Source: a virus
Lineage: Duplodnaviria > Caudoviricetes
IMG/VR virus record: IMGVR_UViG_3300033075_001437
Location: 42,867 to 106,866 of that record
Length of the DNA: 64,000 bases
Strand: one strand, 5' to 3'
In this document: positions 25,218 to 46,643 of the stretch, piece after piece
Position numbering within the stretch: the stretch's first letter is position 1
Layout: every line of letters begins with the position of its first letter
Notes under the pieces: generated by a model
Databases searched by the model: none
What the model saw: the letters and a program-made list of their open reading frames with translations, nothing else
Told to the model about the DNA's origin: nothing
Translations under genes and position numbers: made by a program

Positions 25218-25220
25218 ACA

Positions 25221-25995: not shown

Positions 25996-25998
25996 GTT

Positions 25999-27594
25999 TT
26001 ACCTTCTCTTTGGAACTCTTATAATTACTTCATTTCTTAATAAACTAAAAGAATTTCTCTTTTCATCATATTTAACCATCATTCTAACACAATTTCCAAC
26101 AGCTAGAGCTGTGCTTATCTTTAAATTAGAATTCATTTCTTTTTCCCATATAAAGACAGTAGCCGATTCAACACCATCAAAAACATTAAGCCTCATATAT
26201 GAAGTTTCAGATTTAGTTTTAGCAGATGTTATCTCTGTTATAATGACCTCAATATCAGCTGCTTTCTCATGTTCACATATTTCTATAGCACTTCTAATAG
26301 ATAGACTATTGTGTTGATAAACATCCATAGGTGAATGAATATAGTAACCTAAAAACTCTTTCTCAAAATTTAATAATTCTTCTAAAGTATAATCTTCTTC
26401 CTCCTCAAAAACCCGCATTAGTTTATCAAAACTTTCATCTGGTTCAGGTTTAAAATTCGCTAATTTGTTTGGTATCTTATTCCTTTTAGGATAAATTGAT
26501 TTATATTCTGCTATTAATTCTTTAGATTTCTGCGATATTTTATCATCTGTCCAGCCATCAAGCAACAAAAGCTTTTTCTTTACTTCTTTAGCATGTTCAT
26601 AAGAAGTATATTTATATTGATAATAATTCCAAAGAGCCTTTGAATGGCCATGTTTCGGGATATGCTTAAAAGCACCTAGCTTTATAAATCTTTCTAGAAC
26701 CTTTTTATCCTTTTTATCATCAGCGACAAATTCATCTAAAGTTTTATAATCTCCCTTACCAGCAAATTTTTGTGCAGCTACCTCACCTATGCCTTTAACA
26801 CCAATTAACCCCTGGTTAATAACACTGCCTGTAACAGTATATTTATTTGTAAGATTATTGATATTAACAATTCCTAAATCTAGCTTATCATCGTTTTTAT
26901 AACGGCCCAATTTTGTTATATCTGTTGGAACCCACCCCTCATTGCGTGCTGTTTGAATATATCTTTCTAATTTATCTGGATGGCATGAACTCATAACAGC
27001 CGCCCAATACTCTGGTGCAAAATGAGCCTTTAACCATAATGTTCTATACGCAACTAAACAATATGAAACAGAATGTGAAGCGTTAAAAGCATATCTAGCA
27101 AATCCTGACATCATATCCCACCATCTTAAAGCTTCACTTTCTCCAATGGTTTTAGTAGCACCTTCAATCCACTTACTTTTAACAGCTTTGAGTTGTTCTC
27201 CCCATTTCTTAGCAACAGCTTTCCTTGCATTTTGCGCCTCCGTAGAAGAAAACCCTCCAAACGATTGCCACATAGCAGCAAGTTGCTCTTGATAAACAAG
27301 ATAACCATATGTCTTGTTTAATATTTTAAGCATTCTATCATTCAATTTAGTCTTCCATATCTGATTCTTATCATCTCTATTAGCTATAATTTCAGGTATA
27401 AAATCGATAGGACCAGGATGCCCACAAGCATTCAATATCATTAAATCGTAAAAATTATTAACACCATGCTTTAGAATAGAATTATGGACAACCAACCCGT
27501 CTATTACAAAATTACCTTCTGATAAACCATTTGCAAAATTATGTATATCATATGTCTTTGCTTTGTGATGCTTTTTTATGCTTTTGATCTTCAT
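25999..27594 (-). CDS. dnaE: DNA polymerase III alpha piece 5: split-intein C-half (38 aa) plus fingers/HhH/OB region
   Basis: MKIKSIKK...TYDI...NFVIDGLVVHN then S; HPGP, TYGYLVYQEQ, GFARYAFNASHSVSY, WLKAHF, GVKGIG, FEKEFLGYYIHSP, OB-like end. Confidence 0.93.
   Translation of the reverse strand: MKIKSIKKHHKAKTYDIHNFANGLSEGNFVIDGLVVHNSILKHGVNNFYDLMILNACGHPGPIDFIPEIIANRDDKNQIWKTKLNDRMLKILNKTYGYLVYQEQLAAMWQSFGGFSSTEAQNARKAVAKKWGEQLKAVKSKWIEGATKTIGESEALRWWDMMSGFARYAFNASHSVSYCLVAYRTLWLKAHFAPEYWAAVMSSCHPDKLERYIQTARNEGWVPTDITKLGRYKNDDKLDLGIVNINNLTNKYTVTGSVINQGLIGVKGIGEVAAQKFAGKGDYKTLDEFVADDKKDKKVLERFIKLGAFKHIPKHGHSKALWNYYQYKYTSYEHAKEVKKKLLLLDGWTDDKISQKSKELIAEYKSIYPKRNKIPNKLANFKPEPDESFDKLMRVFEEEEDYTLEELLNFEKEFLGYYIHSPMDVYQHNSLSIRSAIEICEHEKAADIEVIITEITSAKTKSETSYMRLNVFDGVESATVFIWEKEMNSNLKISTALAVGNCVRMMVKYDEKRNSFSLLRNEVIIRVPKRR
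27481..27594 (-). mobile_element. Split intein C-half (pair B)
   Basis: Basic N-terminus, block F TYDI, block G VHN, followed by Ser +1 at 27478-27480. Confidence 0.9.
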
Positions 27595-27596
27595 AC

Positions 27597-27917
27597 TTAC
27601 GATAATACGTCATAAGGAGTTTTCGACATATCAAGTATATTATTAACTACAAACTCAACATCAAAATTTTCATCTATATTAAAAATTATAGCATGTCTAA
27701 GCGGTGGTTTAATAGATACTTCTTTATTAGTCACCACAACTGTGCAACGATATAAATAATCGCAATAAATCATAATACGACGAGGAATCAACGGATTTCC
27801 TTTCACATTTATATTCACATTCTCAGCCATAAGCCTACGTATTATATTGCCCAATATGCATGAAGAAATATCATCTCCTAACCATGGAGGAAGATGGCCA
27901 TTACGCTCAAACTTCAT
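27597..27917 (-). CDS. Small paralogous-family protein
   Basis: FNIDENFDVEFVV C-terminal motif, similar to the neighbouring gene. Confidence 0.55.
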   Translation of the reverse strand: MKFERNGHLPPWLGDDISSCILGNIIRRLMAENVNINVKGNPLIPRRIMIYCDYLYRCTVVVTNKEVSIKPPLRHAIIFNIDENFDVEFVVNNILDMSKTPYDVLS

Positions 27918-28173
27918 TATAATACACCATTATATATTGCACAATTAACGAAACATCAAAATTATCATCTATATCAAAACAAACATCAAAATTGTCACTT
28001 GGCAATATAAAAGATTTTGACAAATATATCGCTTGGCGATCAATTTTAAGAACACATTTGAATCTTTGATAATAATAGATAGAAACACGATATTTTAAAA
28101 AATGTCTAATTATACTAATACCATCAAAGCTCACAATTTCTTGCACTACAGTATCTAATATATCGTCGATCAT
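27907..28173 (-). CDS. Small paralogous-family protein
   Basis: MIDDILDTVVQEI...FDIDDNFDVSLIV. Confidence 0.55.
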   Translation of the reverse strand: MIDDILDTVVQEIVSFDGISIIRHFLKYRVSIYYYQRFKCVLKIDRQAIYLSKSFILPSDNFDVCFDIDDNFDVSLIVQYIMVYYNEV

Positions 28174-28640
28174 GCAAATGTCTTATAAATCTTAGAATCT
28201 TTAACTTCTGGAAACATTTCAGCAGCAAAAGCAAGATACTCACTAGCTTGACAATGCTGTGAAAGTTCATCCCATAAAAGGCCATAAGCAGGGCGTTGCG
28301 AGTTTGCAGGACAACCTTCGCGTTTCTCATACTCGCAAATAGCTGCTATTATTTTACGACAGCCCTCACAAAACTGGATATCAAAGCTTTCTCCATAATC
28401 ATGATCACACTCCGCATCTAAATCATAACAAATTTCACATGTTTCACGTTCACGCATAAACACTTTAGTTCTTGGCTCATTCTCTTCAATAATTGACCCA
28501 CACTCACCGCATGTGCATTTATCGCCGTTAGACAATAAATCTTCTTTAATAATTTCTGCAAACCAATCTGGATCATAATCAAAGCACATATCTATATCCT
28601 TAAGCGGGTTTTCTTCCAGGTTCAGAATTCCAATTGGCAA
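28170..28640 (-). CDS. Cys-rich zinc-finger protein (probable start MCFDYD)
   Basis: CGECG, CEIC, CEGC. Confidence 0.55.
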   Translation of the reverse strand: MPIGILNLEENPLKDIDMCFDYDPDWFAEIIKEDLLSNGDKCTCGECGSIIEENEPRTKVFMRERETCEICYDLDAECDHDYGESFDIQFCEGCRKIIAAICEYEKREGCPANSQRPAYGLLWDELSQHCQASEYLAFAAEMFPEVKDSKIYKTFA

Positions 28641-29160
28641 ACTTTATAAATTCTTTCCTCTTATTAATAACAACAATGTTTGAATCTTTATAATGGAATT
28701 GTATAGTATCTAACCAACCAACCCTGTCTAACGTCAATAGCAACTCTGACAACATATGATGAACAGTTGGAACAGTGCCAGTATCGCCTAAACTATCATG
28801 AAATAACATTTTATCGCAACTAGTTAAGAATTTGGCCCATTTCAATCTATGGTCGCCTAAACCATCTATAAACAATACATCACATGTTGGTATTGTATCT
28901 GGAACTTCATATATCATTTTAAGATCTGGTTTGCATGATTTATCTATAAGGTCTAACCTACCTTTAGTTTTATCAAACCATTTCTGATCTGTCTCATATG
29001 ATGTAAACTCTTTAGCTATCTGAGATATTAGTAATGTTGAACCACCCATACCAAACTCAACAACTGATTTACCTAAGCACAACTCATATAATACAACTAC
29101 ATCAGATCTACTAATATCACCCTGGATTTCAACTGTTTGTGGATTGAACATATAACTCAT
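28600..29160 (-). CDS. Class I SAM-dependent methyltransferase
   Basis: VVEFGMGGSTL, SYETDQKW, DVLFIDG, LFHD. Confidence 0.7.
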   Translation of the reverse strand: MSYMFNPQTVEIQGDISRSDVVVLYELCLGKSVVEFGMGGSTLLISQIAKEFTSYETDQKWFDKTKGRLDLIDKSCKPDLKMIYEVPDTIPTCDVLFIDGLGDHRLKWAKFLTSCDKMLFHDSLGDTGTVPTVHHMLSELLLTLDRVGWLDTIQFHYKDSNIVVINKRKEFIKFANWNSEPGRKPA

Positions 29161-29785
29161 GTTTTCTCATGTTACAATGTTTTATCATTTCATCTTTATC
29201 ATTATGATCAGGATTTTGTTCTAACCATAGTGATAAATACGCATCATACCAATTCCAAATTTCAACACCATCACGCCAAATACTTTTGCAAGAAAAAACT
29301 GATGCATAATTTGTCTCTTCAGGTAAATCAGTTTTAGTTCTAAATGAAAATTCGCTACAATTATCAGAATACAATTCTGTAATAGCATATCTTTTCCATT
29401 TAGTTAAATATTGAATCCCACTAAATGTATATGTTTTAGTCTCATCACAAAGCCATTCATCGCCGACTTCGATCAACGATTTCAATCTATAATTAATCAA
29501 ATCGCTAAAATCAGCTTCAATTAATGCTTCTTGCCAAAGTTTATACTCTTCATTTATGTCGTCTTCTGACAATTGCAACCTACTAGCAGCATCTCTTATT
29601 TTACCAATAAATTCCGAATCTCCTCTTTTTATAATATTACAAAAATCTTTAAAATCAATACAACGCCAAAATGTGTCAATATACACTTTGCGGGCGATTA
29701 CAAAATTCAATCCAATACTATTGGCTAATTCACGCCATTGCTGATTTTTTATAATTGAAATTTTAATATATGGTTCAGTTTTCAT
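29129..29785 (-). CDS. Hypothetical protein
   Basis: 218-aa ORF in a co-oriented run. Confidence 0.6.
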   Translation of the reverse strand: MKTEPYIKISIIKNQQWRELANSIGLNFVIARKVYIDTFWRCIDFKDFCNIIKRGDSEFIGKIRDAASRLQLSEDDINEEYKLWQEALIEADFSDLINYRLKSLIEVGDEWLCDETKTYTFSGIQYLTKWKRYAITELYSDNCSEFSFRTKTDLPEETNYASVFSCKSIWRDGVEIWNWYDAYLSLWLEQNPDHNDKDEMIKHCNMRKHELYVQSTNS

Positions 29786-29808
29786 GTAAATCTGTTACCA
29801 AAGCATAT

Positions 29809-30033
29809 TTAAAAATAAACTAAACAATCATATATCATTTTATCTACATCAAGATCGCAATAATTAATTTTCAATACACCATTGTCATTTAAAATAGATA
29901 AATAATCATCGCGTATTTGTATTATACAAATATTAAACCCACATTTATATACATATATATTTAATCCTGAAATTATGATTTCACATTTATTTAATTTAAA
30001 TCCAAACGATATAATATTTATTAAATCTTCCAT
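29809..30033 (-). CDS. Small paralogous-family protein
   Basis: MEDLINIIS...KINYCDLDVDKMI. Confidence 0.55.
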   Translation of the reverse strand: MEDLINIISFGFKLNKCEIIISGLNIYVYKCGFNICIIQIRDDYLSILNDNGVLKINYCDLDVDKMIYDCLVYF

Positions 30034-30266
30034 GTCATTACATCTAATATCAAACTGTCAATGTCAAGATCACTATAATTAATATAAGTAGTATGACTCT
30101 TTGTAGTCAATGCTAAAAAATTATTGTGTACACTTATAACTCCAACGGAATAAAAATCATCTTTAAACACATATATATCATTTCCGCCAGATACACGCAC
30201 TTTGCAGCCATTTCTATCTAATCTTGATAAAATTAAATCAGTTATTTCATCGACAATTGGTATCAT
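30021..30266 (-). CDS. Small paralogous-family protein
   Basis: DEITDLILSRL...YINYSDLDIDSLI. Confidence 0.55.
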   Translation of the reverse strand: MIPIVDEITDLILSRLDRNGCKVRVSGGNDIYVFKDDFYSVGVISVHNNFLALTTKSHTTYINYSDLDIDSLILDVMTWKI

Positions 30267-30715
30267 TGAAAAACCTTATGATGAAAACTCATAGCGTATG
30301 CGGCAGAATCTGTATCTTCATAAGTATTATATAAAATAGAAAAAGCCTTGAAACCAACAGCTTTAAAAAATAATTGTGCGCCTAAGTTAGTTTCTACAAC
30401 ATTTAAATATATATTATCACGGTTTCCAGTTAATAATTTATCAACTAATTTTTTAATTAGCTTAGCGCCAAACCCACGCCTTCTAAAATCAGGATGTATA
30501 GCCAAATTTTTTAAATAATATTCAGACTTACGTAATTTATAAACCATATAACCTATGACAATATTATCACACTCGATAACCATACCAAGTGTTTTACGTT
30601 GTCTTAAAAAATAAATGAAATCCTGTTCTGTCCATGGATTTTCAAAACTCGCTTTTTCTATTTTTAAGACATCTGGTAGATCAGAACGAGCTATCCATCT
30701 AATTGTCATAGCCAC
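30263..30715 (-). CDS. rimI: RimI-like GNAT acetyltransferase
   Basis: IEKASFENPW, NLAIHPDFRRRGFG, VVETNLGAQLFFKAVGF, YEDTDSAAYAM. Confidence 0.8.
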   Translation of the reverse strand: MAMTIRWIARSDLPDVLKIEKASFENPWTEQDFIYFLRQRKTLGMVIECDNIVIGYMVYKLRKSEYYLKNLAIHPDFRRRGFGAKLIKKLVDKLLTGNRDNIYLNVVETNLGAQLFFKAVGFKAFSILYNTYEDTDSAAYAMSFHHKVFQ

Positions 30716-30963
30716 CGCCTGACGACAAAATCGACAAATCTATCGATATCAAACTCACAATAATCTAAACGTTCAGGATAATTTGGCCATGTATTATTGC
30801 TATTTATATAAATATAATACCCGTCTTTGCTAAATAAAACAGTACAAACATGTTTATTTTTAACATGGATAGCACAACTTGAATGAAGAGATTTAGCTGA
30901 TATGTTCGGCATCGAACTGAGAGTTTGAGCCACAATATCAGCTAAATCTATTGTTATCCCCAT
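30706..30963 (-). CDS. Small paralogous-family protein
   Basis: IDLADIVAQTL...RLDYCEFDIDRFV. Confidence 0.55.
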   Translation of the reverse strand: MGITIDLADIVAQTLSSMPNISAKSLHSSCAIHVKNKHVCTVLFSKDGYYIYINSNNTWPNYPERLDYCEFDIDRFVDFVVRRWL

Positions 30964-30975
30964 TTTATATAATCG

Positions 30976-31005
30976 TTAACGGTAAATTATAACTGTTACC
31001 GTTAA
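30976..31005. terminator. Intergenic hairpin (perfect 10-bp inverted repeat)
   Basis: ttaacggtaa (30976-30985) and ttaccgttaa (30996-31005), just downstream of 31024..31437; no clear U tract. Confidence 0.35.
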
Positions 31006-31023
31006 TGACCGCATATCCCAGTA

Positions 31024-31437
31024 TCATTTGTCAAGTTCAGCAAGTTGCTTTTCTAATTCTTCCATAGACGCCGCTGTTAATTGTTGATCCTTTTTAGCAG
31101 CAATCGCATCCAACAGCTTCTTTCGCTCTGCTGCACGAACATTGCGTGCTACAACAGCTCGATTCTCTTCTTGTTTTGTCTTAATAACATCTTTGACAAT
31201 ATCAAGAGCAACAGTCAATGCTGTTTTCAAAGGATCTGATGAAGTGTCTTCAACAAACGACTCAACATCCATGCTTTTCAATTTCTCATTGATAGCGACC
31301 GCCACAGAATTAAGATCAAACCCAGATTGATTTTTAAGTTGCAATTGAAACAATTGCTCAACAGTAAGATCGCCTCTTGTAGACGGAAACCGCAAACCAT
31401 TCTTAGCCGCAAACTTATAAATATCACTCACAACCAT
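31024..31437 (-). CDS. Conserved phage coiled-coil protein
   Basis: AAKNGLRFPSTRGDLTVEQLFQL...SFV; from recollection this type occurs paired with the upstream 660-aa gene in many phages. Confidence 0.55.
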   Translation of the reverse strand: MVVSDIYKFAAKNGLRFPSTRGDLTVEQLFQLQLKNQSGFDLNSVAVAINEKLKSMDVESFVEDTSSDPLKTALTVALDIVKDVIKTKQEENRAVVARNVRAAERKKLLDAIAAKKDQQLTAASMEELEKQLAELDK

Positions 31438-31471
31438 TCTCCTTAAAAATAAAACACGCTAAACAACATTC

Positions 31472-33454
31472 TTAAAACAATAACGTATATGGCCGCTTGC
31501 CATCAACCACAACAGTAACAGAATCTCCACGTGCCGCTGTAAACCCAACACCAGATATCTGATCATCAACCGATTGGCATTTCGTTTTAGCGCCCAATAC
31601 CTCAAAAACTTTACGATGTTTTTCGAGATCATGACGTAAAAATTCGTTGTAAACGCCACGAACTGAATTTGGATTTTTGCAGCCCTTAAGAGCAAAAATC
31701 AAGTGCTTAGCACCAACTTTATTATCACCCCAATAATTTGGACTATTCATTATAGCAGTGACGGGTATCAATGTCTCAGTCTTTACCCCCCATTTTTCCT
31801 GCGACACTGAACCGCCTATAAGCTTAGTCTTAATATTGGTTAGCATTTTATTCTTTATAACCAATTCAAAACACTCAACATCACTTGAAACTGCTTTGTT
31901 ATAACTATATTGGTGAATTTGCCCGCCAAACTCAACCTCAATTGCAAACCCAACATCAATCGTCTCACGACGATTAAACTGATTAACCCAAATAGCATAT
32001 GTGCCATCGATAAGTTTATTAAATGCTAAATTCTCTACCGGATTTCGACATTGCCCTGAACCAGCGTTCATATCAACATCAAGAATGCCAAATTTATCGC
32101 CATAATATATATGTTTAGAATCCGGCGTTTCAGCATGTAAATCTAAATCGTCGAAATTAAACCAACTTAGACTGACACGTAGTAAAGCATTGATGTTACC
32201 ACCAGCAGCTTTAACACGCTCCTTCACGCTATCAGTAACATCACCGTCATAACTCCAAGCGAAATTATTATCCCAACGAAATAATCTCTCTGGACCATCA
32301 GCTCCAGTAAGGCAAATAAAGTTAGATTGATGCTTATTCTCGACAAACACTTCCACAGACTTGGCTGTAGGAAGAACAGAAGCTACAAAATCGTCGGCTG
32401 ATAATTTTGTAGCTTTAGATAGATTAAATGGCTGACGATTTATACTATCTTCAAGCAAAGCAGCAACGCCATCCTTCATTTTACCTCTTTCATTATTATC
32501 GACAAATAAGACATCATTTACCGATACATCTGATAGTTTAGCATATCGACGAGCAATTGCACCATGTAGCCCAAGATCAGTTAATGTTTGAACCGCCGAT
32601 TCTACCATTTTTTGTGTAATAATTGCTGTTGGCCGTTTATAATTCATAGGCGCAACTTTAGATTCAAAAGACTTTACAGCAACTTCAATGTCTTTACCTT
32701 CTGCCATATCAGTCAATAAAGTACCGATAACAGTGTTGCGAAATCTGGCAGATCGGTCATTAAGATTCTCCCATATAAACAAATTCTTATTAACAGCTTG
32801 CTTAAATCTTTGCAGTAATGATACAAATCCTTGTACTGCTGGTTTATGCTCTTCACCACGATATAATCCATTTGAATTTATAAGATCAAGCACTGCTTCA
32901 AGGTCTGCTTCTTTAATTTCAGTAAGACCGCGATTGCATACTTGAAAGATAGCGTCTTGCTCGCTGCGTTTGGTTTCTGGATCAGCTGTACGATGCTTAG
33001 CTGCAACTACTCCATAGAAGTGATCGTATCGCGCATTTGTCTTTGAATCATAGTTATACTCTTGGCCAAATTTTAATTCTTTAGTGCGAAACACAGTTTT
33101 AATAGTTGCAGATTGAACTAAAGCGTCCAAAGCATCAGCGACTTGTTTATAAGGATAAGGCAAATTTAAACCGCCCCAAACAGTAATAATCTTACCGTCT
33201 TTGATGTTTACAAGATGGCCTAACCGACGAATAAATTGTTTGCAGCATTGACAATCGTGTGTAGTGCGTGTTCTAAATATAGGATTAGTATCTTCTGGAA
33301 ACGAAGCTATATATTTATCATAGATTGTGTCACTAACGTCTGTTACATATAGCTCATTTTTTGACATTTCATTAAAACGAGCATGAACTGCCGCAGAAAA
33401 TTGCGAAAAATCAGTGCACACAATAGGCTTTTGTTGAGTCGCAGCCATAATCAT
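31472..33454 (-). CDS. Conserved phage protein with YfaP/TerD-like C-terminal motifs
   Basis: HDCQCCKQFIR, YRGEEH, FRNTVIGTLL, LRVSLSWFNFDDLDLH, LDVDMNAG, PVEN; GGAG RBS. Confidence 0.55.
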   Translation of the reverse strand: MIMAATQQKPIVCTDFSQFSAAVHARFNEMSKNELYVTDVSDTIYDKYIASFPEDTNPIFRTRTTHDCQCCKQFIRRLGHLVNIKDGKIITVWGGLNLPYPYKQVADALDALVQSATIKTVFRTKELKFGQEYNYDSKTNARYDHFYGVVAAKHRTADPETKRSEQDAIFQVCNRGLTEIKEADLEAVLDLINSNGLYRGEEHKPAVQGFVSLLQRFKQAVNKNLFIWENLNDRSARFRNTVIGTLLTDMAEGKDIEVAVKSFESKVAPMNYKRPTAIITQKMVESAVQTLTDLGLHGAIARRYAKLSDVSVNDVLFVDNNERGKMKDGVAALLEDSINRQPFNLSKATKLSADDFVASVLPTAKSVEVFVENKHQSNFICLTGADGPERLFRWDNNFAWSYDGDVTDSVKERVKAAGGNINALLRVSLSWFNFDDLDLHAETPDSKHIYYGDKFGILDVDMNAGSGQCRNPVENLAFNKLIDGTYAIWVNQFNRRETIDVGFAIEVEFGGQIHQYSYNKAVSSDVECFELVIKNKMLTNIKTKLIGGSVSQEKWGVKTETLIPVTAIMNSPNYWGDNKVGAKHLIFALKGCKNPNSVRGVYNEFLRHDLEKHRKVFEVLGAKTKCQSVDDQISGVGFTAARGDSVTVVVDGKRPYTLLF

Positions 33455-33531
33455 TCTCCTTCGAATTCAGTTAATAATAGACAATTTCGTATCAATAACA
33501 AATACGTCGCACGATTTCAAAAAGTTTATCT

Positions 33532-35181
33532 TTACGACCACTTTTTAATATATCTAAAGTTGCCAGCATCCCAAATTCTTCTATAGCCATTGTTAAACAT
33601 ATTGACCGATTCAGTCTCGTTTTGGTCAAAAACATCTAAAACATTTGGCAATTTATGCTTTTGAAACTTATGCCTAGAATAAACCTTTTGTTTTTTAAAA
33701 TACATATAATTAGGACTAGTAATACCATCTAAAACAAACCCAACCTTTTCATATGAATTTCCGTTAAAGTACCTTCTATTCGCATATGAAATCATAGATT
33801 TAGGCTTATATTTATCAACAAAATAATCCATCAATTTAGATAATCCGCCAACAACAACAGTGTTTAAACGATTGCAATACCTCATCATCTCATATTGATA
33901 CTTGTTATGCTTAGATATTGTTAATAACGCCACTAGCTCACCATCATAAGACAAACCAAATGAATATGGCGCACTTCTATATCCTTGTATATGATTGTTA
34001 TTTAAAAAGCTTACTACCTGTGTAACAGATGGTGTTATAATATAGCATTTTCTAGCATAAATCCTGTTGGCTTTCCTAAAACAACTTGAAAGTATAGATT
34101 TAACAATGTCTCTTTTATCGTTCCATTCATGCTCGAAAATCTGTAACAATCTGATATTGTTGTTATGACATAAATCATGTTTATAAGAACACATGTTGAT
34201 TTGATCTAATGTTTCTTTTTCACAATATGAATGCCAATAATCACCATGACACTCTATGCCGACATTTCCTGCTAAAAAATCTATTTCCTTAACTAAAGAC
34301 CTATCATACAATTTAATTTCATCATCAGCTATAGTTAAAAGAAAATCATAAACAGATTTTTCAAATAAATTCATTTTACATTTTTTACATTTAGCCCCAA
34401 CTATGTGAGATTTTGGGCAAACTGTAAAAACGCCATGTTCTGGACAAATAACATCAACCGTATGCTCGCATCCAGTGTATGATTCTTTAATATAAGAATA
34501 CTTACCACCATATATTTCATTTGCTTTTAAAACAAAATTGTCAAACTTATAAGCACTTTCCGCCGCACATTTTGAACATCCTTTACCAGCTAAATGCGCA
34601 TATCTAGATTGTATAAATTCGCCGTGTTTGTCGCATATTACTTTAACAATCGTTTTTTTGTGATTTATCGAATTACTATACCCACCAATGTCAACATATT
34701 GATATTTATTATCGTGTATAGTATTAGCTTGTTTTACGAAATCGTCAAAACCTGTTTTTAAATTATTGTTTCTAGCAATTACAGCACATTTTGGGCAGCC
34801 AGACTTATTAGAGATATGATTAGCTGGTATCGTGTTAAATTCACCATGCTCTTTGCATATAACGATCACTTTTTTACGCATACCATTATATATTGTCTTG
34901 TCATAATTATATTTATAACTATGCACGATATTAGCTTCGTTTATAAAATCAGATAGTGTTTTTAACTGTTCCCTCGACCTGCAAGCATTCTTTTCACAAC
35001 CGCATTTATTGCAACCTTGTTTTCTTACGCCTGCGTGTAATGATGGCAATTGCCAAAACGAACCATGTTTTAGGCAAATTATTTCTACTTTTGTTTTACT
35101 ATCTATATAATTCGACTTGCTATAGTCATATTTATCGTTATGTTTTAATATTGCTTTCTTTATAAACTCTTGTGTGTTCAT
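33532..35181 (-). mobile_element. Free-standing homing endonuclease, Hef-like (Zn repeats + Vsr-like nuclease + GNAT-like C-domain)
   Basis: Four F..A..H..KY.Y...IC..HG.F...H...GC..C repeats; EIDF...IECHGDYWHS; YARKC, NHIQG, GGLSK, SYANRR, IWDAG. Confidence 0.75.
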
Positions 35182-35808: not shown

Positions 35809-35843
35809 ACAGGGAGCTACAAAATCAAATTGTAGTTCCCTGT
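35809..35843. terminator. Intergenic stem-loop
   Basis: acagggagctacaa / ttgtagttccctgt, 14-bp stem with one G-T pair, downstream of 35860..37182. Confidence 0.5.
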
Positions 35844-35859
35844 TTATTTTCAATACTTA

Positions 35860-37182: not shown

Positions 37183-37229
37183 AAAACTCTCCTAGGTTAA
37201 ACATACAAAAGATTTAAAATACAATAAGC

Positions 37230-38489: not shown

Positions 38490-38492
38490 GTT

Positions 38493-38765
38493 TTATATTT
38501 TACTGCCACTATAAAGTATCCTGCATATTATGTTGCCGACAAAAACGTCAGTATCTACAAATTCATCATAATTAGTAACTATAGGTATACAATCGCCTAT
38601 AAAGCTCTTAATCTTATCATTATGGAAAATAATATCTGCATATATGCCGCCATCTATAGTTATAAATCTACGACCACGTATGAAGGTTATATTGTTTATA
38701 TTGTCAAGTCTGTTAGCAATAATATCTATCAAATCATCGATCATAAAGCACAAAATAAAGCACAA
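38493..38765 (-). CDS. Small paralogous-family protein
   Basis: MIDDLIDIIANRL...VTNYDEFVDTD. Confidence 0.55.
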   Translation of the reverse strand: MCFILCFMIDDLIDIIANRLDNINNITFIRGRRFITIDGGIYADIIFHNDKIKSFIGDCIPIVTNYDEFVDTDVFVGNIICRILYSGSKI

Positions 38766-39001
38766 AATAAATCATCTTTTAATTCGTGATTGGCCCTTGA
38801 TATGGTTCGTTCGACAAATTTTCAGCAAACTCCTCAGCAGCGTCACGACTGTCGAACCACCGACACCATCCAGTTTTGGTATTGGTGGTTAACGAATGAC
38901 GAACAATCCAGTCAGAACCTGATCCATATACAATAACTTCAGATACCCCACAAAAAACCGTTGTATAATCATAACGATAAACATATATCATATTAATTGC
39001 C

Positions 39002-39520
39002 CTATTTTGAATTTTCAAACATTTGTTTTTTGAAATCTTCAAGTTCCTTGTTTGATAGCGGACAATTTGGGCAAACCGCAACGTCCTTTGATGGTTTATC
39101 GCTAATGAATTTTGCCCCACAACCCAAGCATTGGATACGAATGCCAGCAGCTTTCTCTAACCTTTCAAGCCTAGATAATATATCAAAAACTGGCTCGCCA
39201 TAACTGCCAATTCCAATTTGTTCTGCTTCTATTAAATATGCTGGTATTTTACCATCTTTGAAATCATTTAAAAACCAACATAAATCGTGTAAAAAACCTG
39301 TACTTATTGAAGATAGAATAATATTATAGTTTTCATCTCGTATTTTGCCACAATCGCCATCATATACTCCACTTATTTCGTTTTCTGGAATATTTTTAAA
39401 TCGAATAAAAAACTGGCGATAACACGGCATAAGACCACTGAGACTGCTATTGGTGTTTTTGACGTTTGTGGTTTCTATATTCATTCGTTTAACATACCGA
39501 TTCTGATTTTCATATGTCAA
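39002..39520 (-). CDS. Hypothetical protein with zinc ribbon
   Basis: CLGCG...CPNC. Confidence 0.5.
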   Translation of the reverse strand: MTYENQNRYVKRMNIETTNVKNTNSSLSGLMPCYRQFFIRFKNIPENEISGVYDGDCGKIRDENYNIILSSISTGFLHDLCWFLNDFKDGKIPAYLIEAEQIGIGSYGEPVFDILSRLERLEKAAGIRIQCLGCGAKFISDKPSKDVAVCPNCPLSNKELEDFKKQMFENSK

Positions 39521-39570
39521 ATCCTTGGAAAACCTTACACTCTCAAAACTAAGAATTTAGTGGCTCCAAT

Positions 39571-40122
39571 TCATTGCCCTATCTTTTTCAAAACTTCCTT
39601 AGGTTTTACCACTTCTCTTAGTGTATATTGCCGAGCATAATAAGGAATCTGGGAAGCTATAATCCGAGAATACTCAGATCGAGAAACTGAATAAATCCAT
39701 TCTTTATCTGAAAGAGCATTCGCTTCTTCAATCTCTTGGCGAAAACGCTGCACAAAACCATGAGATTCATAACCACGATGAATACGATCTAGGTTCTCAG
39801 GATCATTCTTATAAATTTCAACCACCCAGGCGGGACACTTATGCGAGCGAATTAAGTGTGTACCAAGTAGAACATTCTCCCCTAAAATTGTAATAGATTT
39901 TCTGGCTTCATCATGTTCTTCACTGGTAAAATCTCCGGCTTCTAATTGCCACTGTTCTTTTGGGATTCTTTCATTAGCAAAGGGTATCAAAACTCTTTCC
40001 TGAGAGAATAATGGTATCACTAATAAGTTAAAAAGCATAATAAAAAAGAGATAAAACTGTATGTTACAACGATTCATTCGCATTAACTTTCTCCCTACAG
40101 TGCAATTCATTAAAAATATCAA
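39571..40122 (-). CDS. Hypothetical protein with signal-peptide-like N-terminus
   Basis: Hydrophobic FYLFFIMLFNLLVIPLFSQ stretch. Confidence 0.45.
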   Translation of the reverse strand: MIFLMNCTVGRKLMRMNRCNIQFYLFFIMLFNLLVIPLFSQERVLIPFANERIPKEQWQLEAGDFTSEEHDEARKSITILGENVLLGTHLIRSHKCPAWVVEIYKNDPENLDRIHRGYESHGFVQRFRQEIEEANALSDKEWIYSVSRSEYSRIIASQIPYYARQYTLREVVKPKEVLKKIGQ

Positions 40123-41966: not shown

Positions 41967-42002
41967 ACACTTATTTTTGCACTTATAATCGATATTTCGG
42001 GT

Positions 42003-43154
42003 CTAGAACTTCTTCAAAACATCTTGAACATCAACTTCTTGTCCATTGTATAATATCTTATCGCCATGATTAAGTAAAAGTATCTCCCCATTCTTTAATT
42101 TGACAGCATACTTTTTAACAATTGGACCAAACGATATACCTCTATTTTCTTTTATCAATCTGCAAGCACTGTATATATATTCTAATGTCTTCAAACCCAA
42201 TATATCGAGCTTGCAATAGCCAAGCTTGCTTAAGTGTGTGTTGCGCCCTTCTGGCCACATTGTTGACCATGGATTTTTATTGCTACTTCTGGTTAAAGGA
42301 ACATTGCCGAACAGTGGTTTATTAGCTATAACTATAGCCCCAGCATGAACACCAGCGTTCCTAACCTTGCCGATCATTTTAATAGCATATTCAAATAAAT
42401 CTGGATGATTATCCTTGAATGCTTGCAATTGCTGATACTCAAATAAAGCCCTTCCTATCGTTATATTGTCATATTCATCAGATCCACATCTAGGGCATTT
42501 TAATTCAGCATGTACAAATTTGCATTCTTTCTCTTCTTCACTATCAACTTCTTTATACTTCCCTTTGCAAGTTGACTGCCCAAACTCTCTTAAATCATCA
42601 ACATCTTCAGGTAAAGTTGTTGTTAACGCATGAATTTCAGATTGATGTACCTTACCAATCGCTCTAGCAACATCCAATAATGCTGATTTGAATTTATATG
42701 TCTGCCAAGTTCCGACATTGCAAACATTGCCGTACTCATCATTAATATCAATATTAAATCTTGTAGCCGCATATTTTTTAATATCATCACGTGCTTCTGG
42801 TAAACAATCTATATCTATGTCAGGCATGTCCATATCTTTAGTAAAATCAGATGGTAAGTTGCCATATTGATCTAAAAATTTATGAACCTGCGTATATGAT
42901 GCATTATTCAACAATGGTTCTGTTCTTGTAGCTATTGGGTCTATATCAACCATACCAAGAAGCCACGGCAGAACCAACATACTTGGATTACTAGAAAACT
43001 TCCTGTTTTCTATATATAAATTAATCCAATATGTTTCATATCCTTGTTTTTCTATTTCTGAGAATTCGAATTTAAGTCTATCTATATAAACTTGATCTTT
43101 ATTTTTACTATTTAAATTATTTAAAGCTATTTCTTTTAATTCTTCCCAAATCAT
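42003..43154 (-). CDS. dnaE: DNA polymerase III alpha piece 3: catalytic palm/thumb
   Basis: MPDIDID, KSALLDVARA, RNAGVHAGAIVI, KLDILGLKTL (all three catalytic aspartates). Confidence 0.93.
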   Translation of the reverse strand: MIWEELKEIALNNLNSKNKDQVYIDRLKFEFSEIEKQGYETYWINLYIENRKFSSNPSMLVLPWLLGMVDIDPIATRTEPLLNNASYTQVHKFLDQYGNLPSDFTKDMDMPDIDIDCLPEARDDIKKYAATRFNIDINDEYGNVCNVGTWQTYKFKSALLDVARAIGKVHQSEIHALTTTLPEDVDDLREFGQSTCKGKYKEVDSEEEKECKFVHAELKCPRCGSDEYDNITIGRALFEYQQLQAFKDNHPDLFEYAIKMIGKVRNAGVHAGAIVIANKPLFGNVPLTRSSNKNPWSTMWPEGRNTHLSKLGYCKLDILGLKTLEYIYSACRLIKENRGISFGPIVKKYAVKLKNGEILLLNHGDKILYNGQEVDVQDVLKKF

Positions 43155-43564
43155 TTGCCGCCTGCACCTGGATGTATAGCGTTCATATGGTTAGTCAGCC
43201 CAAATTGTTTTTTAAACTTTTTATTACATATTGGGCAAGTAATGTCTTTAGTTGATTCTTCTATTAGCGACTGTGCCGGTTCTTGATCCAATACTGGCGC
43301 AGTTTGAATTTGCGGCACTTGCGGCGTAATTTTATCTTGTTTTACCGGTTTACTTTGATGATTTATATAATTTTCTTTCAATTTCCAAGGCTGCATAGCG
43401 TATGTAAAGCCATCTTTCTCATATGTATCAGCTTGATAAACAAGAGCTTTTTTAGATTTGGCAATATCTGTTGCGACATCATTCTTCAAAACTGTAGCTA
43501 AAACCTTAGCAGGTGGGTGTACGACAATATACGCTACTTTATTCATTACAAGTACCACTGTCAA
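43151..43564 (-). CDS. Protein with C-terminal C2H2 zinc finger
   Basis: CPICNKKFKKQFGLTNHMNAIH. Confidence 0.65.
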   Translation of the reverse strand: MTVVLVMNKVAYIVVHPPAKVLATVLKNDVATDIAKSKKALVYQADTYEKDGFTYAMQPWKLKENYINHQSKPVKQDKITPQVPQIQTAPVLDQEPAQSLIEESTKDITCPICNKKFKKQFGLTNHMNAIHPGAGGK

Positions 43565-43973
43565 AAGTGTCTTTGCCTAGTATGACTTTATCGCAAATAC
43601 TTTCTAAGAACGTTTGTTTATATTGGTTAATATAAACATGATCAAACTTCATAAGTAATAAACGAATATTCCGTAATAACAACTTATTCTTATTAGATTC
43701 ATACTTCCAAGTATTACCATCTTTAATAAAAAAATTTATTACATCAGCGTTGCAATATAAATACAAAGTATTACAATAAACATTATTATAATTATATGAG
43801 GTCAAAGCAGATAGAATCGATTGCAATTTTACAAATTCAGCAGTTTTATTATATAGCTGATAAGCATAATATCTATGATAATTGCAATATACAGATTTAA
43901 TAGCTACAGTTGATACAGTGTTATCTACCTTTTCATAACAATATAATTTACAATTTATTGCCATGGACGTCAC
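43539..43973 (-). CDS. Degenerate RNase HI-like fold
   Basis: NKTAEFVKL..IL.AL, LYLYCN, GNTWKY...LL..IRLLLMKFDHV echo the RNase HI pattern without the catalytic aspartates. Confidence 0.3.
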   Translation of the reverse strand: MTSMAINCKLYCYEKVDNTVSTVAIKSVYCNYHRYYAYQLYNKTAEFVKLQSILSALTSYNYNNVYCNTLYLYCNADVINFFIKDGNTWKYESNKNKLLLRNIRLLLMKFDHVYINQYKQTFLESICDKVILGKDTFDSGTCNE

Positions 43974-44370
43974 ATATTGTAGGATATTCTGATTTTGTAG
44001 CTGCCGCTAATGCGTTTAATAATTTAGATATTATTCTTAATAAATTATATTTCGCCTGTATCTTATCTATTTTCCTTAATTTAATTATAGCTATCAATAA
44101 TTCGTCATTTAAATTCATGATTTCTTCGGTAAGACCTTTCGCCGCATTAATAGATGCTACATGTTTCGACACATGATTTGCAACTGATTCGATAATTGCA
44201 TATGATAAGCCTATTAATTCTCTCGTCGGATCATTATTAATAATCAATGAATCTATAATATCTATAGATTTAATAAGATATGCGGCCAATTCCGAAGTTG
44301 GGCCATTATATATTAGCAAGTATATTCTAATTGAATGTTTAAATTCTGAATTTGCATCTATTTTATTCAT
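43948..44370 (-). CDS. Hypothetical helical protein
   Basis: 140-aa ORF whose start overlaps the dnaE piece 2 stop. Confidence 0.55.
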   Translation of the reverse strand: MNKIDANSEFKHSIRIYLLIYNGPTSELAAYLIKSIDIIDSLIINNDPTRELIGLSYAIIESVANHVSKHVASINAAKGLTEEIMNLNDELLIAIIKLRKIDKIQAKYNLLRIISKLLNALAAATKSEYPTICDVHGNKL

Positions 44371-44690
44371 TATTTTTCCGGCATTGTCACTTTTAAAAGG
44401 TATCCGCCACGGCTGCTTGACAAGAATCTGTCAAAACTCAAATCCCATTTCATTGGGTCATAATTTGAAATTCCTAATAAATAACATACTAAACTTCCGC
44501 CAGCCGAATTAGAACTGAACACTCCATTTAATTGATATGTGTTAGTGGCGCTAACTTGTAAATCATATACTTTACCGGTGTATTTCTTCTTTGTTATCTT
44601 GTTTATTCTTATTCTCTTTATAGTATTTTTTGTAACCAATTTCTGCAATTCTTTTATGTTTTTGATCTGTGAAGGTAATAGTTGATTCAT
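44370..44690 (-). CDS. dnaE: DNA polymerase III alpha piece 2: split-intein C-half plus 45-aa extein
   Basis: YTGKVYDLQV...NGVFSSN, then SAGGSLVCYLLGISNYDPMKWDLSFDRFL (equivalent to DnaE SAAGSLVAYxLGITxxDPLxxxLLFERFL). Confidence 0.92.
   Translation of the reverse strand: MNQLLPSQIKNIKELQKLVTKNTIKRIRINKITKKKYTGKVYDLQVSATNTYQLNGVFSSNSAGGSLVCYLLGISNYDPMKWDLSFDRFLSSSRGGYLLKVTMPEK
44508..44690 (-). mobile_element. Split intein C-half (pair A)
   Basis: Block F VYDL; terminal Ser-Asn (Asn at 44508-44510); Ser +1. Confidence 0.88.
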
Positions 44691-45055
44691 TGAAAATAAC
44701 CCTAATTTGCCGCCACATGTGACTTCCGCCTGTTCCTCTTAAAATACCTTCGGAAAGCAATCTCTCCGTTGTATATAATACATAATTATCAGCAACGCCA
44801 GTTTCTATGATATATCTTTCAGCGGCTGCCTGTTTTTCGCCAACTTTGTTTTGGTAAAATCCTTTTATTTCTATTATCGATTTAACATTTTTATCATCTA
44901 TGACACAGAAATCTGGATGATAAAAATGTTTATCATATGCTATACTAAAATCGCACCTTCTGATGGTTTTATAATTGTTTCTAACGTGCCAAATATATAT
45001 GTTGAATATTTCCGCACTTATTGCAATTATATGTTATTTTGGTTTTTTTCGACAT
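44572..45055 (-). pseudogene. Broken PD-(D/E)XK homing-endonuclease remnant between the intein halves
   Basis: ATG 45055 gives MSKKTKITYNCNKCG...AR* (24 aa). A second frame, open 45033-44572, reads FYHPDFCVIDDKNVKSIIEIKG with no standard start upstream of the motif. Confidence 0.6.
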
Positions 45056-46643
45056 TAGCGATTAAATCCGAGATACCACCGATGATTTCATCAGTATCTT
45101 TGATTTCATATGCTTTCAGTAAACATACAATATTATCTCTTATGACATATAGCTTATGGTCAGAAGTTAATTCCAAAACGCATCCGTCAACTTCAATAAC
45201 AAACAACTCTTCAGATACATCATAAATGAATTTATTTTCAACTACTTGTTTATCACCGAATCCGTCAATTATCTCATCGCCTATAGATATGTCAGATATT
45301 TTTTGGCAACTGTTAACGGACACATTAACTAAAGCGTCTGGTGTAGTGCAGCCACGGGGGGCAAATGGGAAGCCCCTATTTTTGCCATAATCTATTAAAT
45401 CTTTAGTTATTAAAAAATAACTAGCAAAACCTTTTTCAATAAATCTGCTTAATTCTAATTTAGCCTGATCTAAATAAGTTACCTCTTTGCCATCAACAAC
45501 AAATTTCCTATCACACTTATCTAAACCAAGCTCCTTCAATCTATTCTTAACAATTGTTATAAGCTTCTTATCAGCATCTTCAATACTCGGTATCTTAGGC
45601 GATAAATCGAATTTAACATTGTCGCACTTGTCAGCTATTTCAATAGAGTTATCACATGCCTCATGAAACCTTCTATCATCTATACCATCAGAATATGTAT
45701 TATTCTTGAATCTTGTCCATAATTCAGCACGTGTTTTAAAATATTGTTCATCGCTATTAACATGAAACAAATCTGGCGAATCAACAGTTGTTTCTTGATC
45801 TATTGCCATCATGATTTTTTGGATCATTGAATCTTCTCTTTTCATATAATGACAATCATTAGTTATAACTGGTTTAATTTTAAATTTATCAGCTATCATA
45901 TTTAATATTTTAAAAACTCTGTCATCGCCATCAACCCCAGGCATTTGAAGTTCAATATAATAATCATCGCCGAATATTTGTTTATATGATTTTATAATAT
46001 TCACAGCGGAATTAAGACATTCACTGTCTGTGCGTTCCTTTAAAATATTGCCTTCTCTGTCCTTTATTTGCTTAGTTCTTAACTCGTGTGATACTGGGCC
46101 ATTTAAACAACCAGATAAAACTATTAATCCTTCTTTATATTTAAACAATTTTTCAGTCCAAGACCTGTTATATTTTGCTCTACCCATTCCAAATAAACCA
46201 TCTTTATAAGCTTCTGTAGTTAACTTTATGAGGTTTTCAACTCCTTGTCTGTTTTTACATAAGACAGTAAGATGTCTATTTCTAGTTATTTTAAAATAAT
46301 CTTCAATATTTTGTTTTTTCCATTCTTCAGATCTCCATTTTATCCCTTTAGATTCTAACTCTTGTCTTATCGGCTCATGGTCATTCAGATAAATTTCGCT
46401 ACCAGCGATATATTTAAGACCGCTTTTCTTGCACTCAAAAAAACCATCAGGCACTGATGCCATGTGGCCATGTTCAGTTAGAGCCAATGCACGGTAGCCT
46501 CTTTTCTTGCTTTCAGAGGCATATTGCTGGACATAAGCAACACCGTCTAACATTGAAGCAATACTGTGATTGTGTAAATGTATTATCTCTGAATCACCAA
46601 CATAATCCTCGCAAGTATAAATCTTATTCATGATAACATTCAA
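45027..46643 (-). CDS. dnaE: DNA polymerase III alpha piece 1: PHP domain plus split-intein N-half
   Basis: HLHNHS..SMLDG, ALTEHG, GSEIY, HLTVL, LSGCLNG, TNDCHY, GFASYFLI, APRG then CTTPD...LTSDH. Confidence 0.93.
   Translation of the reverse strand: MNVIMNKIYTCEDYVGDSEIIHLHNHSIASMLDGVAYVQQYASESKKRGYRALALTEHGHMASVPDGFFECKKSGLKYIAGSEIYLNDHEPIRQELESKGIKWRSEEWKKQNIEDYFKITRNRHLTVLCKNRQGVENLIKLTTEAYKDGLFGMGRAKYNRSWTEKLFKYKEGLIVLSGCLNGPVSHELRTKQIKDREGNILKERTDSECLNSAVNIIKSYKQIFGDDYYIELQMPGVDGDDRVFKILNMIADKFKIKPVITNDCHYMKREDSMIQKIMMAIDQETTVDSPDLFHVNSDEQYFKTRAELWTRFKNNTYSDGIDDRRFHEACDNSIEIADKCDNVKFDLSPKIPSIEDADKKLITIVKNRLKELGLDKCDRKFVVDGKEVTYLDQAKLELSRFIEKGFASYFLITKDLIDYGKNRGFPFAPRGCTTPDALVNVSVNSCQKISDISIGDEIIDGFGDKQVVENKFIYDVSEELFVIEVDGCVLELTSDHKLYVIRDNIVCLLKAYEIKDTDEIIGGISDLIANVEKNQNNI
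45030..45350 (-). mobile_element. Split intein N-half (pair A), 107 aa
   Basis: Cys1 at 45348-45350 directly after RG; block B TSDH; acidic. Confidence 0.88.

Follow-up and report, generated by a model that had tools for sequence, protein, structure and literature searches.

Fractured genes are known for DnaE: in three such loci, split inteins occur together with free-standing endonucleases, and one of the three carries part of a second intein (Dassa, London, Stoddard, Schueler-Furman, Pietrokovski 2009, PMC2677866). Genes can also be broken in the absence of an intein. In Aeromonas phage Aeh1, the essential nrdA gene is cut by the homing endonuclease gene mobE, and the enzyme works only with the new C- and N-terminal tails that arose at the break (Crona et al. 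2010, PMC3045599). In group 2.2 jumbo phages, the catalytic module of a minimal Pol III alpha is split over two genes, one for an NTP-binding and one for an Mg/template-binding protein (Iyer, Anantharaman, Krishnan, Burroughs, Aravind 2021, PMC7824862).

The locus analysed here lies in the window, i.e. the whole stretch of 64,000 nucleotides under study. We consider it probable that an uncultured jumbo phage encodes its family C (DnaE-type) DNA polymerase here in five genes, broken up in successive events by selfish DNA elements and most likely working as three polypeptides. The sequence-only reading had named no precedent for this architecture in a family C polymerase, but the DnaE loci of Dassa et al. 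(PMC2677866) provide one; moreover, the DnaE of two relatives of the phage, L006 and L013, also has two split inteins. Each part of the layout belongs to a known kind (fractured genes including DnaE, endonuclease-split genes with tails, split jumbo-phage Pol III alpha) and has a published precedent. The layout itself is real and extreme, and what is new is the combination of break types and the degree of fragmentation.

As in the loci of Dassa et al., a split intein interrupts a replication gene, the N half is followed by a Vsr-like or other free-standing endonuclease gene, and all parts lie on one strand. Those loci likewise came from phage-like environmental DNA, with DnaE among the listed hosts. 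Unlike them, however, the present locus has an ancestral split and an intein-less fission in the same enzyme as two unrelated split inteins; one of its endonuclease genes has decayed, and six and eleven unrelated genes separate the intact ones from the next DnaE piece downstream. As for the cyanobacterial Ssp and Npu DnaE, the likeness is that a family C polymerase would be assembled by protein trans-splicing from genes possibly far apart. Nevertheless, the cyanobacterial intein is inserted before CFNKSH with a Cys at +1, whereas the inteins described here occupy other sites with a Ser at +1, and the similarity between them is weak (E 0.16 or worse). The cyanobacterial case also concerns a cellular host and a single split, in contrast with a phage and multiple breaks.

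Layout of the five-gene DnaE

In an NCBIfam profile search, five minus-strand ORFs cover TIGR00594 colinearly from position 2 to 1021, which bears out the order first read from the letters; the coordinates and motifs given there are right as well.

45351..46643, minus strand: piece 1, extein 1 (431 aa), PHP domain and start of the palm/NTP-binding region, ending ...APRG; TIGR00594 2-362
44370..44507, minus strand: piece 2, extein 2 (45 aa), SAGGSLV...FDRFL; TIGR00594 363-395
43151..44370, minus strand: small ORFs of 140, 144 and 137 aa that separate the two ancestral DnaE genes
42003..43154, minus strand: piece 3 (383 aa), N-terminal helical region of ~105 aa, catalytic palm (PDIDID, KLDILG), Cys4 insert, 40-aa tail; TIGR00594 397-580
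35465..35674, minus strand: piece 4, extein 4 (70 aa), acidic head, then SGWDDIDP...GIFQFDTNTAK
25999..27480, minus strand: piece 5, extein 5 (493 aa), fingers (HPGP, YQEQ, FNASH), HhH, OB-like C terminus; TIGR00594 582-1021

Chance matches to DnaE models are excluded, with E-values of 1e-7 to 1e-68. Between them, the pieces contain the full family C domain set in order (PHP, a palm that has the three catalytic Asp, fingers, HhH and OB), with Pfam PHP (E 2.9e-35) in piece 1, PF07733 (E 4e-26) in piece 3, and PF17657 (E 9e-23), HHH_6 and NF004226 positions 591-1059 in piece 5; PF14579 was detected as well. Piece 4 matches the finger domain; it also matches intein_Nterm (TIGR01445) with 35.9 bits against a cut-off of 24.5. 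Every single piece misses the whole-protein cut-off, as expected of fragments. The AF2 model of piece 3 (pLDDT 79) finds Pol III alpha 3e0d in Foldseek with an E-value of 7e-12. Outside the canonical DnaE alignment lie the N-terminal ~105 residues of piece 3, its tail and the head of piece 4. The ORF of piece 1 stands at 45027-46643 as originally read, but its start is more likely the ATG at 46631 than the TTG at 46643.

Identity to the nearest relatives is 50-70% at the amino-acid level, a divergence beyond the range of dN/dS. All pieces are similarly close to their orthologues in L010 (49-70%; 57% for piece 1), and piece 5 shares ~50% identity with roughly 100 relatives.

The four junctions are of three kinds: split inteins at 1/2 and 4/5, a clade-wide split at 2/3 and an intein-less fission at 3/4. 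The five colinear pieces of the sequence-only reading stand. Beyond that reading, 2/3 is common to the whole clade, and 3/4 is a conserved fission with a dedicated tail and head rather than a bare break. Junction 2/3 is ancestral to the clade and is no recent break. The ground state is seen in L005, with two genes of 472 aa and 920 aa, and the ancestor would have had a PHP/NTP-binding subunit of ~475 aa and a palm-fingers-HhH-OB subunit of ~900 aa, with a few small ORFs between them. L005 likewise has three such ORFs. The 140-aa ORF of our locus has a same-place homologue there, and the 137-aa ORF, which contains a C2H2 zinc finger, has one in L009. The piece 2 extein closes the N-terminal subunit. 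Junction 2/3 falls at the same domain boundary as the split Pol III alpha of Iyer et al. (2021); that version is devoid of PHP and other DnaE domains and occurs alongside a family B polymerase, whereas the full domain set is present here.

The two split inteins

The intein halves and the endonuclease genes associated with them are as follows.

45030..45350, minus strand: intein A N half (107 aa), Cys1, block B TSDH, net charge -13
44665..45055, minus strand: decayed free-standing endonuclease gene between the intein A halves
44508..44690, minus strand: intein A C half (61 aa), ending ...FSSN, then Ser+1; net charge +10
35141..35464, minus strand: intein B N half (108 aa), Cys1, block B TEEH, net charge -9; the TIGR01445 match of piece 4
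33532..35181, minus strand: free-standing homing endonuclease gene (549 aa), overlapping the end of the intein B N half by 44 bp
27481..27594, minus strand: intein B C half (38 aa), ending ...VVHN, then Ser+1

Both inteins keep the Cys1, TxxH, terminal Asn and Ser+1 of class 1 Hint split inteins, in the contexts PRG/C... and ...SSN/S for A and TAK/C... and ...VHN/S for B, and each has same-site alleles in related phage contigs. Their N halves share 18% identity; as the two inteins are unrelated, cross-reaction between them is unlikely, in line with the mutual orthogonality that the first reading required. The earlier description of two independent split inteins that restore contiguous sequence at PRG/SAGGS and AK/SIL is confirmed by unsplit relatives, which are unbroken at both sites. 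It had overlooked the homing endonuclease genes and the remnant.

The N half of intein A shares 53-63% identity with same-site N halves in L009 and L010, and its weak PDB matches are all inteins except one. A single Hint match to PF14890 (35.2 bits, profile positions 38-154) runs across both halves. The C half has no penultimate His, nor do the L009 and L010 alleles. In this it resembles the Npu DnaE C half, which ends in ASN (SSN in intein A). Homologous piece-2 proteins in the database (n=23) are 65-125 aa long and 53-76% identical. PRGSAGGS is unbroken in the unsplit protein P0127 of L006, and removal of intein A leaves no gap or loss. Compared with L010, the halves of intein A are kept as well as the exteins (63-70% and 49-70% identity, respectively).

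The 336 bp between pieces 1 and 2 are no empty gap; they hold a decayed endonuclease gene. It keeps its first 15 and last ~112 codons in different frames, with ~180 codons lost. At the same place, L013 carries an intact PD-(D/E)xK-like ORF of 333 aa, which in tblastn matches the remnant with 61% identity over 112 aa (E 1e-51) and at 10/15 of the first residues. The remnant also gives weak DUF790 and TnsA-like matches.

As for intein B, its N and C halves share 47% and 53% identity, respectively, with the same-site allele of L006, and the PDB matches of the N half are the gp41-1, NrdJ-1, DnaE and DnaB inteins. P0015 shares the intein B site, with GNFVIDGLVVHN identical. The 549-aa endonuclease matches PHROG 559 and 3339 (E 2e-119), has the motif IECHGDYWHS and is 36-39% identical to two L006 endonucleases found between intein halves. 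FQFDTxLAKSIL is unbroken in ~97 relatives of at least 800 aa, and removal of intein B yields a sequence that matches unsplit P0006, P0008, P0011 and others, with no gap or loss.

Intein A interrupts the GS motif encoded by the first gene (PRG/SAGGS), and its PD-(D/E)xK-like endonuclease gene has since decayed; intein B, unrelated to it, lies at FQFDTxxAK/SIL with a second Vsr-like endonuclease gene. Judging from their conserved residues, we infer that both inteins splice. Trans-splicing by A would join pieces 1 and 2 into a chain of 476 aa, and that by B pieces 4 and 5 into one of 563 aa. The mature replicase is therefore likely to consist of the three chains proposed at the outset (1+2, 3 and 4+5).

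The intein-less fission between pieces 3 and 4

Three further features surround junction 3/4.

42006-42125, minus strand: piece 3 tail (40 aa), kept in P0129, P0143, P0147, P0156, P0159, P0167 and P0128
40119..41966, minus strand: free-standing gene of a 615-aa homing endonuclease, immediately behind piece 3
35627-35674, minus strand: piece 4 acidic head (16 aa)

At least seven other cluster representatives share this fission. Within the 55 short representatives of the piece-3 type it occurs in seven, counting P0003 of the window itself, and small piece-4-type genes are also found in P0221, P0222 and P0223. The tail and head are missing from most 900-aa relatives. In L007 the two fission genes adjoin, 25 bp apart; in L010 an orthologous endonuclease gene lies between them, 49% identical to the 615-aa endonuclease. 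The latter matches PHROG 559 and 3339 (homing/HNH endonuclease, E 3e-110) and has DUF723-type zinc-ribbon repeats and the Vsr-type motif IEVNGLYWHS.

The junction has neither Cys1 nor a terminal Asn, and the tail has Asn and Asp in place of the block B Thr and His. With an endonuclease gene in the break, no intein catalytic residues and extra tails, it is arranged like Aeh1 nrdA/mobE, which is the best model for it. Unlike in Aeh1, another enzyme and another endonuclease family are involved, and the tail and head are conserved in the subclade and weakly resemble intein interface strands. The cut in the second ancestral gene would have fallen behind the palm, in a variable loop; the gap has a Vsr-like/DUF723 homing endonuclease gene but no active intein. 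The beta-rich tail and the acidic head would probably hold the two chains together non-covalently.

The tail and head may be what is left of a third split intein, now dead, from which both catalytic ends (block A including Cys1, blocks F/G including Asn) would have disappeared and which would have kept only its docking strands as a subclade-conserved non-covalent clasp between the palm chain and the fingers chain. We regard this as possible, at somewhat less than an even chance. Scored against an N-intein profile built from 83 N-intein halves of this clade, seven of eight real tails reach 8.1-14.8 bits, compared with at most 5.4 for 160 composition-matched shuffles. Six tails share one alignment register, onto block B and the strands that follow. 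Similarly, when heads are scored on the first strand of a C-intein profile of the clade, 5/11 exceed every one of 220 shuffles. If this origin is correct, one replicase would display every stage in the life of a split intein: one still active and accompanied by an intact endonuclease gene, one active with a decayed endonuclease gene, and one dead but domesticated.

Alternatively, the tail and head might not derive from an intein but from a small beta mini-domain in a variable loop, ancestral as in P0128 and later cut by a homing endonuclease gene inside or beside it, in the manner of Aeh1 nrdA/mobE. This origin, too, is a real possibility that we would place a little below even. Unsplit P0128 holds the same segment in frame within a contiguous protein, where its AF2 model (pLDDT 82-89) consists of four short strands followed by a helix and one more strand. 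Pfam gives no Hint signal in the piece 3 tail or the P0128 insert, even at E 10, and no family for the tail or for the insert including its head-equivalent segment. None of the 55 representatives has an intact intein at the 3/4 site (GISFG/SGWDD), and intein-less endonuclease fractures with novel tails have been described (Dassa 2009, PMC2677866; Crona 2010, PMC3045599). However, the profile scores above all shuffles and the shared register are at odds with this origin.

Endonuclease genes, inserted blocks and spacing

A homing-endonuclease gene or its decayed remnant lies behind pieces 1, 3 and 4, and these elements explain the layout. In fractured genes, the two intein halves flank a free-standing homing endonuclease gene of the same strand; for intein B this gene is intact, while for A only a deleted remnant is left. 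Intein B departs from the compact fractured type by eleven more genes behind its endonuclease gene. Two blocks of genes separate the pieces.

35860..40122, minus strand: six-ORF block (183, 172, 113, 90, 419, 440 aa) between the 615-aa endonuclease gene and piece 4
27597..33454, minus strand: eleven-ORF block between the 549-aa endonuclease gene and piece 5, including a phage protein of 660 aa that is widely conserved and a GNAT acetyltransferase

The six-ORF block is specific to this genome, as the DnaE loci of L005-L014 contain nothing homologous to it; its PHROG search gave only a weak 'lipoprotein' match. A hairpin with a 14-bp stem lies at 35809-35843. The eleven-ORF block has no homologue in the relatives' DnaE loci either. 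Its 660-aa protein matches phrog_1735 (E 1e-224), is 46-50% identical to hypothetical proteins and has matches in 553 phage records; the acetyltransferase match has an E-value of 2e-16. The distance of 7.5 kb and 12 genes given earlier for the intein B halves was accurate, as 7,543 bp with 12 ORFs of at least 50 aa separate pieces 4 and 5. Presumably, unrelated gene blocks were inserted later downstream of each intact endonuclease gene, spacing the pieces 6.3 and 7.5 kb apart. Such wide spacing is harmless, since proteins act in trans.

The spacing is read from a single metagenomic assembly, and the inserted blocks have no counterpart in the relatives' DnaE loci, so that a chimeric assembly of a genome as compact as its relatives might be suspected. 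We consider this improbable: strand, GC content and GC skew are even across the region, and ORFs abut or overlap over the block borders (40119-40122, 27594-27597). In addition, six non-endonuclease genes lie between intein halves in L013/L014, two independent assemblies of ~355 kb, and eleven ORFs separate pieces 2 and 3 in L010.

It is likewise improbable that the fragments are a decaying, non-functional dnaE, with replication left to a family A enzyme, an intact dnaE in the other 70% of the genome or the host: the load of selfish elements is heavy, one endonuclease gene is already a pseudogene, the window has a PolA-like ORF (406-1608) and the genome is incomplete, but all five ORFs are open, their catalytic motifs are unbroken in every piece, the intein motifs are kept, similarity to the L010 orthologues is even among the pieces, and the break types recur across many independent contigs, which would be unexpected under random decay. 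There is no second DnaE match, as far as the 106.9-kb viral contig (~30% of the genome) shows.

The PolA-like ORF encodes a small family A polymerase-like protein, and DnaE therefore need not be the sole replicase. Downstream of the locus lies a replication module (UDG, RecA, DnaB) whose synteny is kept in relatives.

A replicase spread over five genes

In this phage one enzyme is distributed over five genes with four junctions and three repair strategies, which shows how far selfish elements can fragment an essential, still retained replicase. The five ORFs, all of them present as claimed in the sequence-only reading, are as follows:

45027-46643, minus strand: piece 1, DnaE segment ending in APRG, then the N half of split intein A
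44370-44690, minus strand: piece 2, C half of split intein A, then a short DnaE segment
42003-43154, minus strand: piece 3, DnaE segment with a 40-residue C-terminal tail
35138-35674, minus strand: piece 4, 16-residue acidic N-terminal head, DnaE segment, then the N half of split intein B
25999-27594, minus strand: piece 5, C half of split intein B, then the last DnaE segment

The DnaE model TIGR00594 (NCBIfam) places four of the pieces at 2-362, 363-395, 397-580 and 582-1021; the short stretch left over is covered by piece 4, which matches the finger domain and intein_Nterm. The large spacing noted between pieces 4 and 5 amounts to 7,543 bp with twelve ORFs on the contig as assembled. A six-frame search of the entire contig, about 30% of the genome, found no DnaE match beyond the five pieces. 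Among all loci examined this one has the highest piece count, yet it is part of a broad pattern. We infer splicing, chain assembly and polymerase activity for this five-piece DnaE.

That junctions 1|2 and 4|5 are two split inteins is borne out by halves with catalytic motifs, by alleles in relatives and by contiguous, unsplit relatives. The N half of intein A (107 aa) starts with Cys after APRG and contains TSDH, and its C half (61 aa) ends in SSN before Ser; for intein B, the N half (108 aa) starts with Cys after NTAK and contains TEEH, and the C half (38 aa) ends in VHN before Ser. Since their N halves are only 18% identical and their C halves differ in length, the two inteins are unrelated. 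Net charges are opposite between the halves of each (-13/+10 for A, -9/+3 for B). Sequence matches in the PDB are weak for both N halves, but inteins make up four of five for A and 19 of 20 for B, including the gp41-1, NrdJ-1, DnaE, DnaB and RecA inteins. When read through stops from the N half to the C half of intein A, PF14890 gives one match (35.2 bits, profile positions 38-154).

Splicing would rebuild contiguous sequence at both sites, as had been proposed: PRGSAGGS is unbroken in protein P0127 of the related locus L006, and FQFDTxLAKSIL in 900-aa proteins of relatives. Same-site alleles of intein A occur in the related loci L009, L010 and L013 and in 23 small piece-2-like proteins, and those of intein B in L006 and in the homologous proteins P0015 and P0221 to P0223. 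As the intein A halves are 63-70% identical to those of L010 and the exteins 49-70%, the intein is conserved as well as the enzyme. Joining of the pieces at the RNA level, by splicing or bypass, is unsupported, an Rfam scan of 25000-47500 (E up to 1) having found no group I or group II intron.

Junctions without an active intein

Junction 2|3 is ancestral, as homologous genes show. Of the 120 best piece-5 homologues, about 97 are at least 800 aa long, start exactly as piece 3 does and extend to the OB end. In the related locus L005, three small ORFs, as between pieces 2 and 3, separate a PHP gene of 472 aa from a polymerase gene of 920 aa. The boundary divides the NTP-binding part (GS/FDRFL) from the Mg-binding part (PDIDID), and other jumbo phages have a minimal Pol III alpha split at the same place (Iyer et al. 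2021, PMC7824862). Piece 3 has about 105 additional N-terminal residues (42831-43154), which are helical and kept in all 900-aa relatives. Their residues 4-44 align weakly (Pfam, E 0.019) to the PF07733 region matched by the end of piece 1; BLASTP paired the expected regions without significance, and a profile of the region had no match among PHP-gene products. As a weak lead, this N terminus could stem from a duplication at the ancestral fission and have degenerated since.

Junction 3|4, in turn, is a conserved fission without an intein. Its site is a variable loop (GISFG...SGWDD) at which most relatives are unbroken. A tail homologous to that of piece 3 ends six other cluster representatives, and the acidic head of piece 4 (MIxxxDIxSIE) is conserved in at least nine other proteins. 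In the related locus L007, the piece-3-type and piece-4-type genes are just 25 bp apart.

There is weak but coherent support for the idea that tail and head may be the relic of a dead split intein. Against a clade N-half profile (n=83), seven of eight tails score above all 160 shuffles, and six share one register, which takes in block B (its Thr and His lost) and the strands that come next; on the first strand of the C-half profile, five of 11 heads outscore every one of 220 shuffles. Alternatively, tail and head could represent a mini-domain of the loop that was later cut by an endonuclease gene. The tail segment is found in frame within the unsplit homologue P0128, and a DUF723/Vsr-like endonuclease gene sits between pieces 3 and 4 both in the window and in L010 (the two are 49% identical). 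In AF2 models the tail forms four short strands and a helix (pLDDT 83-87), and P0128 has an additional strand at the position of the head (pLDDT 82-89); Pfam detects a Hint domain neither in the tail nor in the P0128 insert.

Under either reading, relic or mini-domain, Aeh1 NrdA offers the nearest working model: that split enzyme requires the tails that arose when mobE was inserted (Crona 2010, PMC3045599). A Vsr-like endonuclease also splits an SbcD-like gene, with tails of 25 and 9 aa (Dassa 2009, PMC2677866). If confirmed, a clasp between tail and head would be the second case of assembly tails after Aeh1 NrdA and possibly a design principle.

Endonuclease genes and inserted blocks

Selfish elements explain the dnaE layout. 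Immediately 3' of pieces 3 and 4 lie ORFs of 615 and 549 aa that match PHROGs 559 and 3339 (homing endonucleases; E about 1e-110 or better) and combine zinc-ribbon repeats with a Vsr-type (I/V)E..G..WHS motif. The 336-bp space 3' of piece 1 is a wrecked PD-(D/E)xK-like endonuclease gene whose intact counterpart lies between the same intein A halves in L013: the first 15 codons are retained, about 180 codons are deleted, and the last 112 residues are 61% identical. Behind the two intact endonuclease genes are blocks of six and eleven ORFs without counterparts in the DnaE loci of relatives. In PMC10448857, nuclease genes are proposed to mark the borders of genetic exchange; by our own inference, block insertion beside nuclease genes fits this idea.

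Between the intein B halves, 31472-33454 encodes a 660-aa protein (phrog_1735, E 1e-224) found in 553 phage records and 46-50% identical to hypothetical proteins of phages as diverse as roseophage DSS3 phages, Pseudomonas phage Zuri, Aeromonas phiA8-29 and Salmonella phage Arash. Upstream of piece 4, a spacer of 185 bp contains a strong hairpin (35809-35843) with a 14-bp stem and a T run after it, which suggests that the inserted block's own transcript may end there and that piece 4 would be transcribed separately. A promoter scan was not above shuffles (120 versus 111).

Fragmented dnaE genes among relatives

Breaks at several sites are also found among 55 short piece-3-type representatives, tallied by the end of the protein. 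Two of them carry both FNx|C and GPMx|C motifs, and the counts sum to 56.

Protein ends of short piece-3-type representatives
N half at FNx|C: 27 representatives
N half at GPMx|C: 13 representatives
N half at site B: 9 representatives
3|4 fission: 7 representatives

A full-length LAGLIDADG intein interrupts the PHP domain of L006 (704-3310) and L009 (1905-4679) at FIAG|C...HN|CEIY, a site that is empty in the window (KYIAGSEIY). Furthermore, one DnaE of L006 (4596-11590; Logan SRR26786855) contains two paralogous split inteins separated by only 26 residues; the product of the middle gene (166 aa) consists of a C half, an extein of 26 aa and an N half. Their N halves are 43% identical and their C halves 51%, and a DUF723 endonuclease gene accompanies each. 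L013 has two split inteins with genes other than an endonuclease between the halves. Orthogonal split-intein pairs are wanted for multi-fragment protein ligation. Two new Cys1/Ser+1 split inteins, unrelated to each other, are available as tools from the window, and L006 adds a paralogous pair in which orthogonality, a sharper problem for such close paralogues than for the window inteins, is a real biological requirement.

Split inteins occupy at least four sites in the surrounding phage clade, which also has a full LAGLIDADG intein, a fission without an intein, and endonuclease genes in both intact and decayed states. This clade offers a natural evolutionary series for comparing the homing cycle and the steps by which a contiguous intein becomes split and then a relic. 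The architecture had been put forward as unfamiliar. This does not hold for fractured DnaE as such, for which split inteins together with Vsr-like endonucleases have been described at three sites, in one case with part of a second intein (Dassa et al. 2009, PMC2677866); it does hold for a DnaE in five genes and for this combination of junction types, of which we found no description in the literature searched.

The window is the final 64 kb of a 106,866-bp IMG/VR viral contig (completeness about 30% by CheckV), with a GC content of about 31% and nearly all genes on the minus strand. As relatives sit on contigs of 150-408 kb, the source is an uncultured jumbo phage. A pattern scan found no close relatives in IMG/VR; the nearest relative has an amino-acid identity of only 50-70%, and identity to isolate phages is 33% at most. 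G000, the whole contig, has more Intein_splicing matches upstream of the window (16425-16838 and 24305-26308), within open frames of 813 and 1830 aa, and inteins appear to be present in further genes of this phage.

The dnaE neighbourhood is a replication and recombination module with RecA, DnaB, UDG, SbcCD-like proteins, a helicase, a PurA/PurZ-like enzyme and a small family A polymerase-like ORF. The latter (406-1608, 400 aa; 34.4 bits in Pfam, at the cut-off) is relevant to the question whether the phage has a replicase besides DnaE, and the adenylosuccinate-synthetase-like ORF of PurA/PurZ type (50001-51152) to possible base modification. The DnaB-like gene is single in the window (440 aa), whereas DnaB of L006 (19150-21184) is encoded in two genes, of 285 aa with the DnaB N domain and of 370 aa with DnaB_C.
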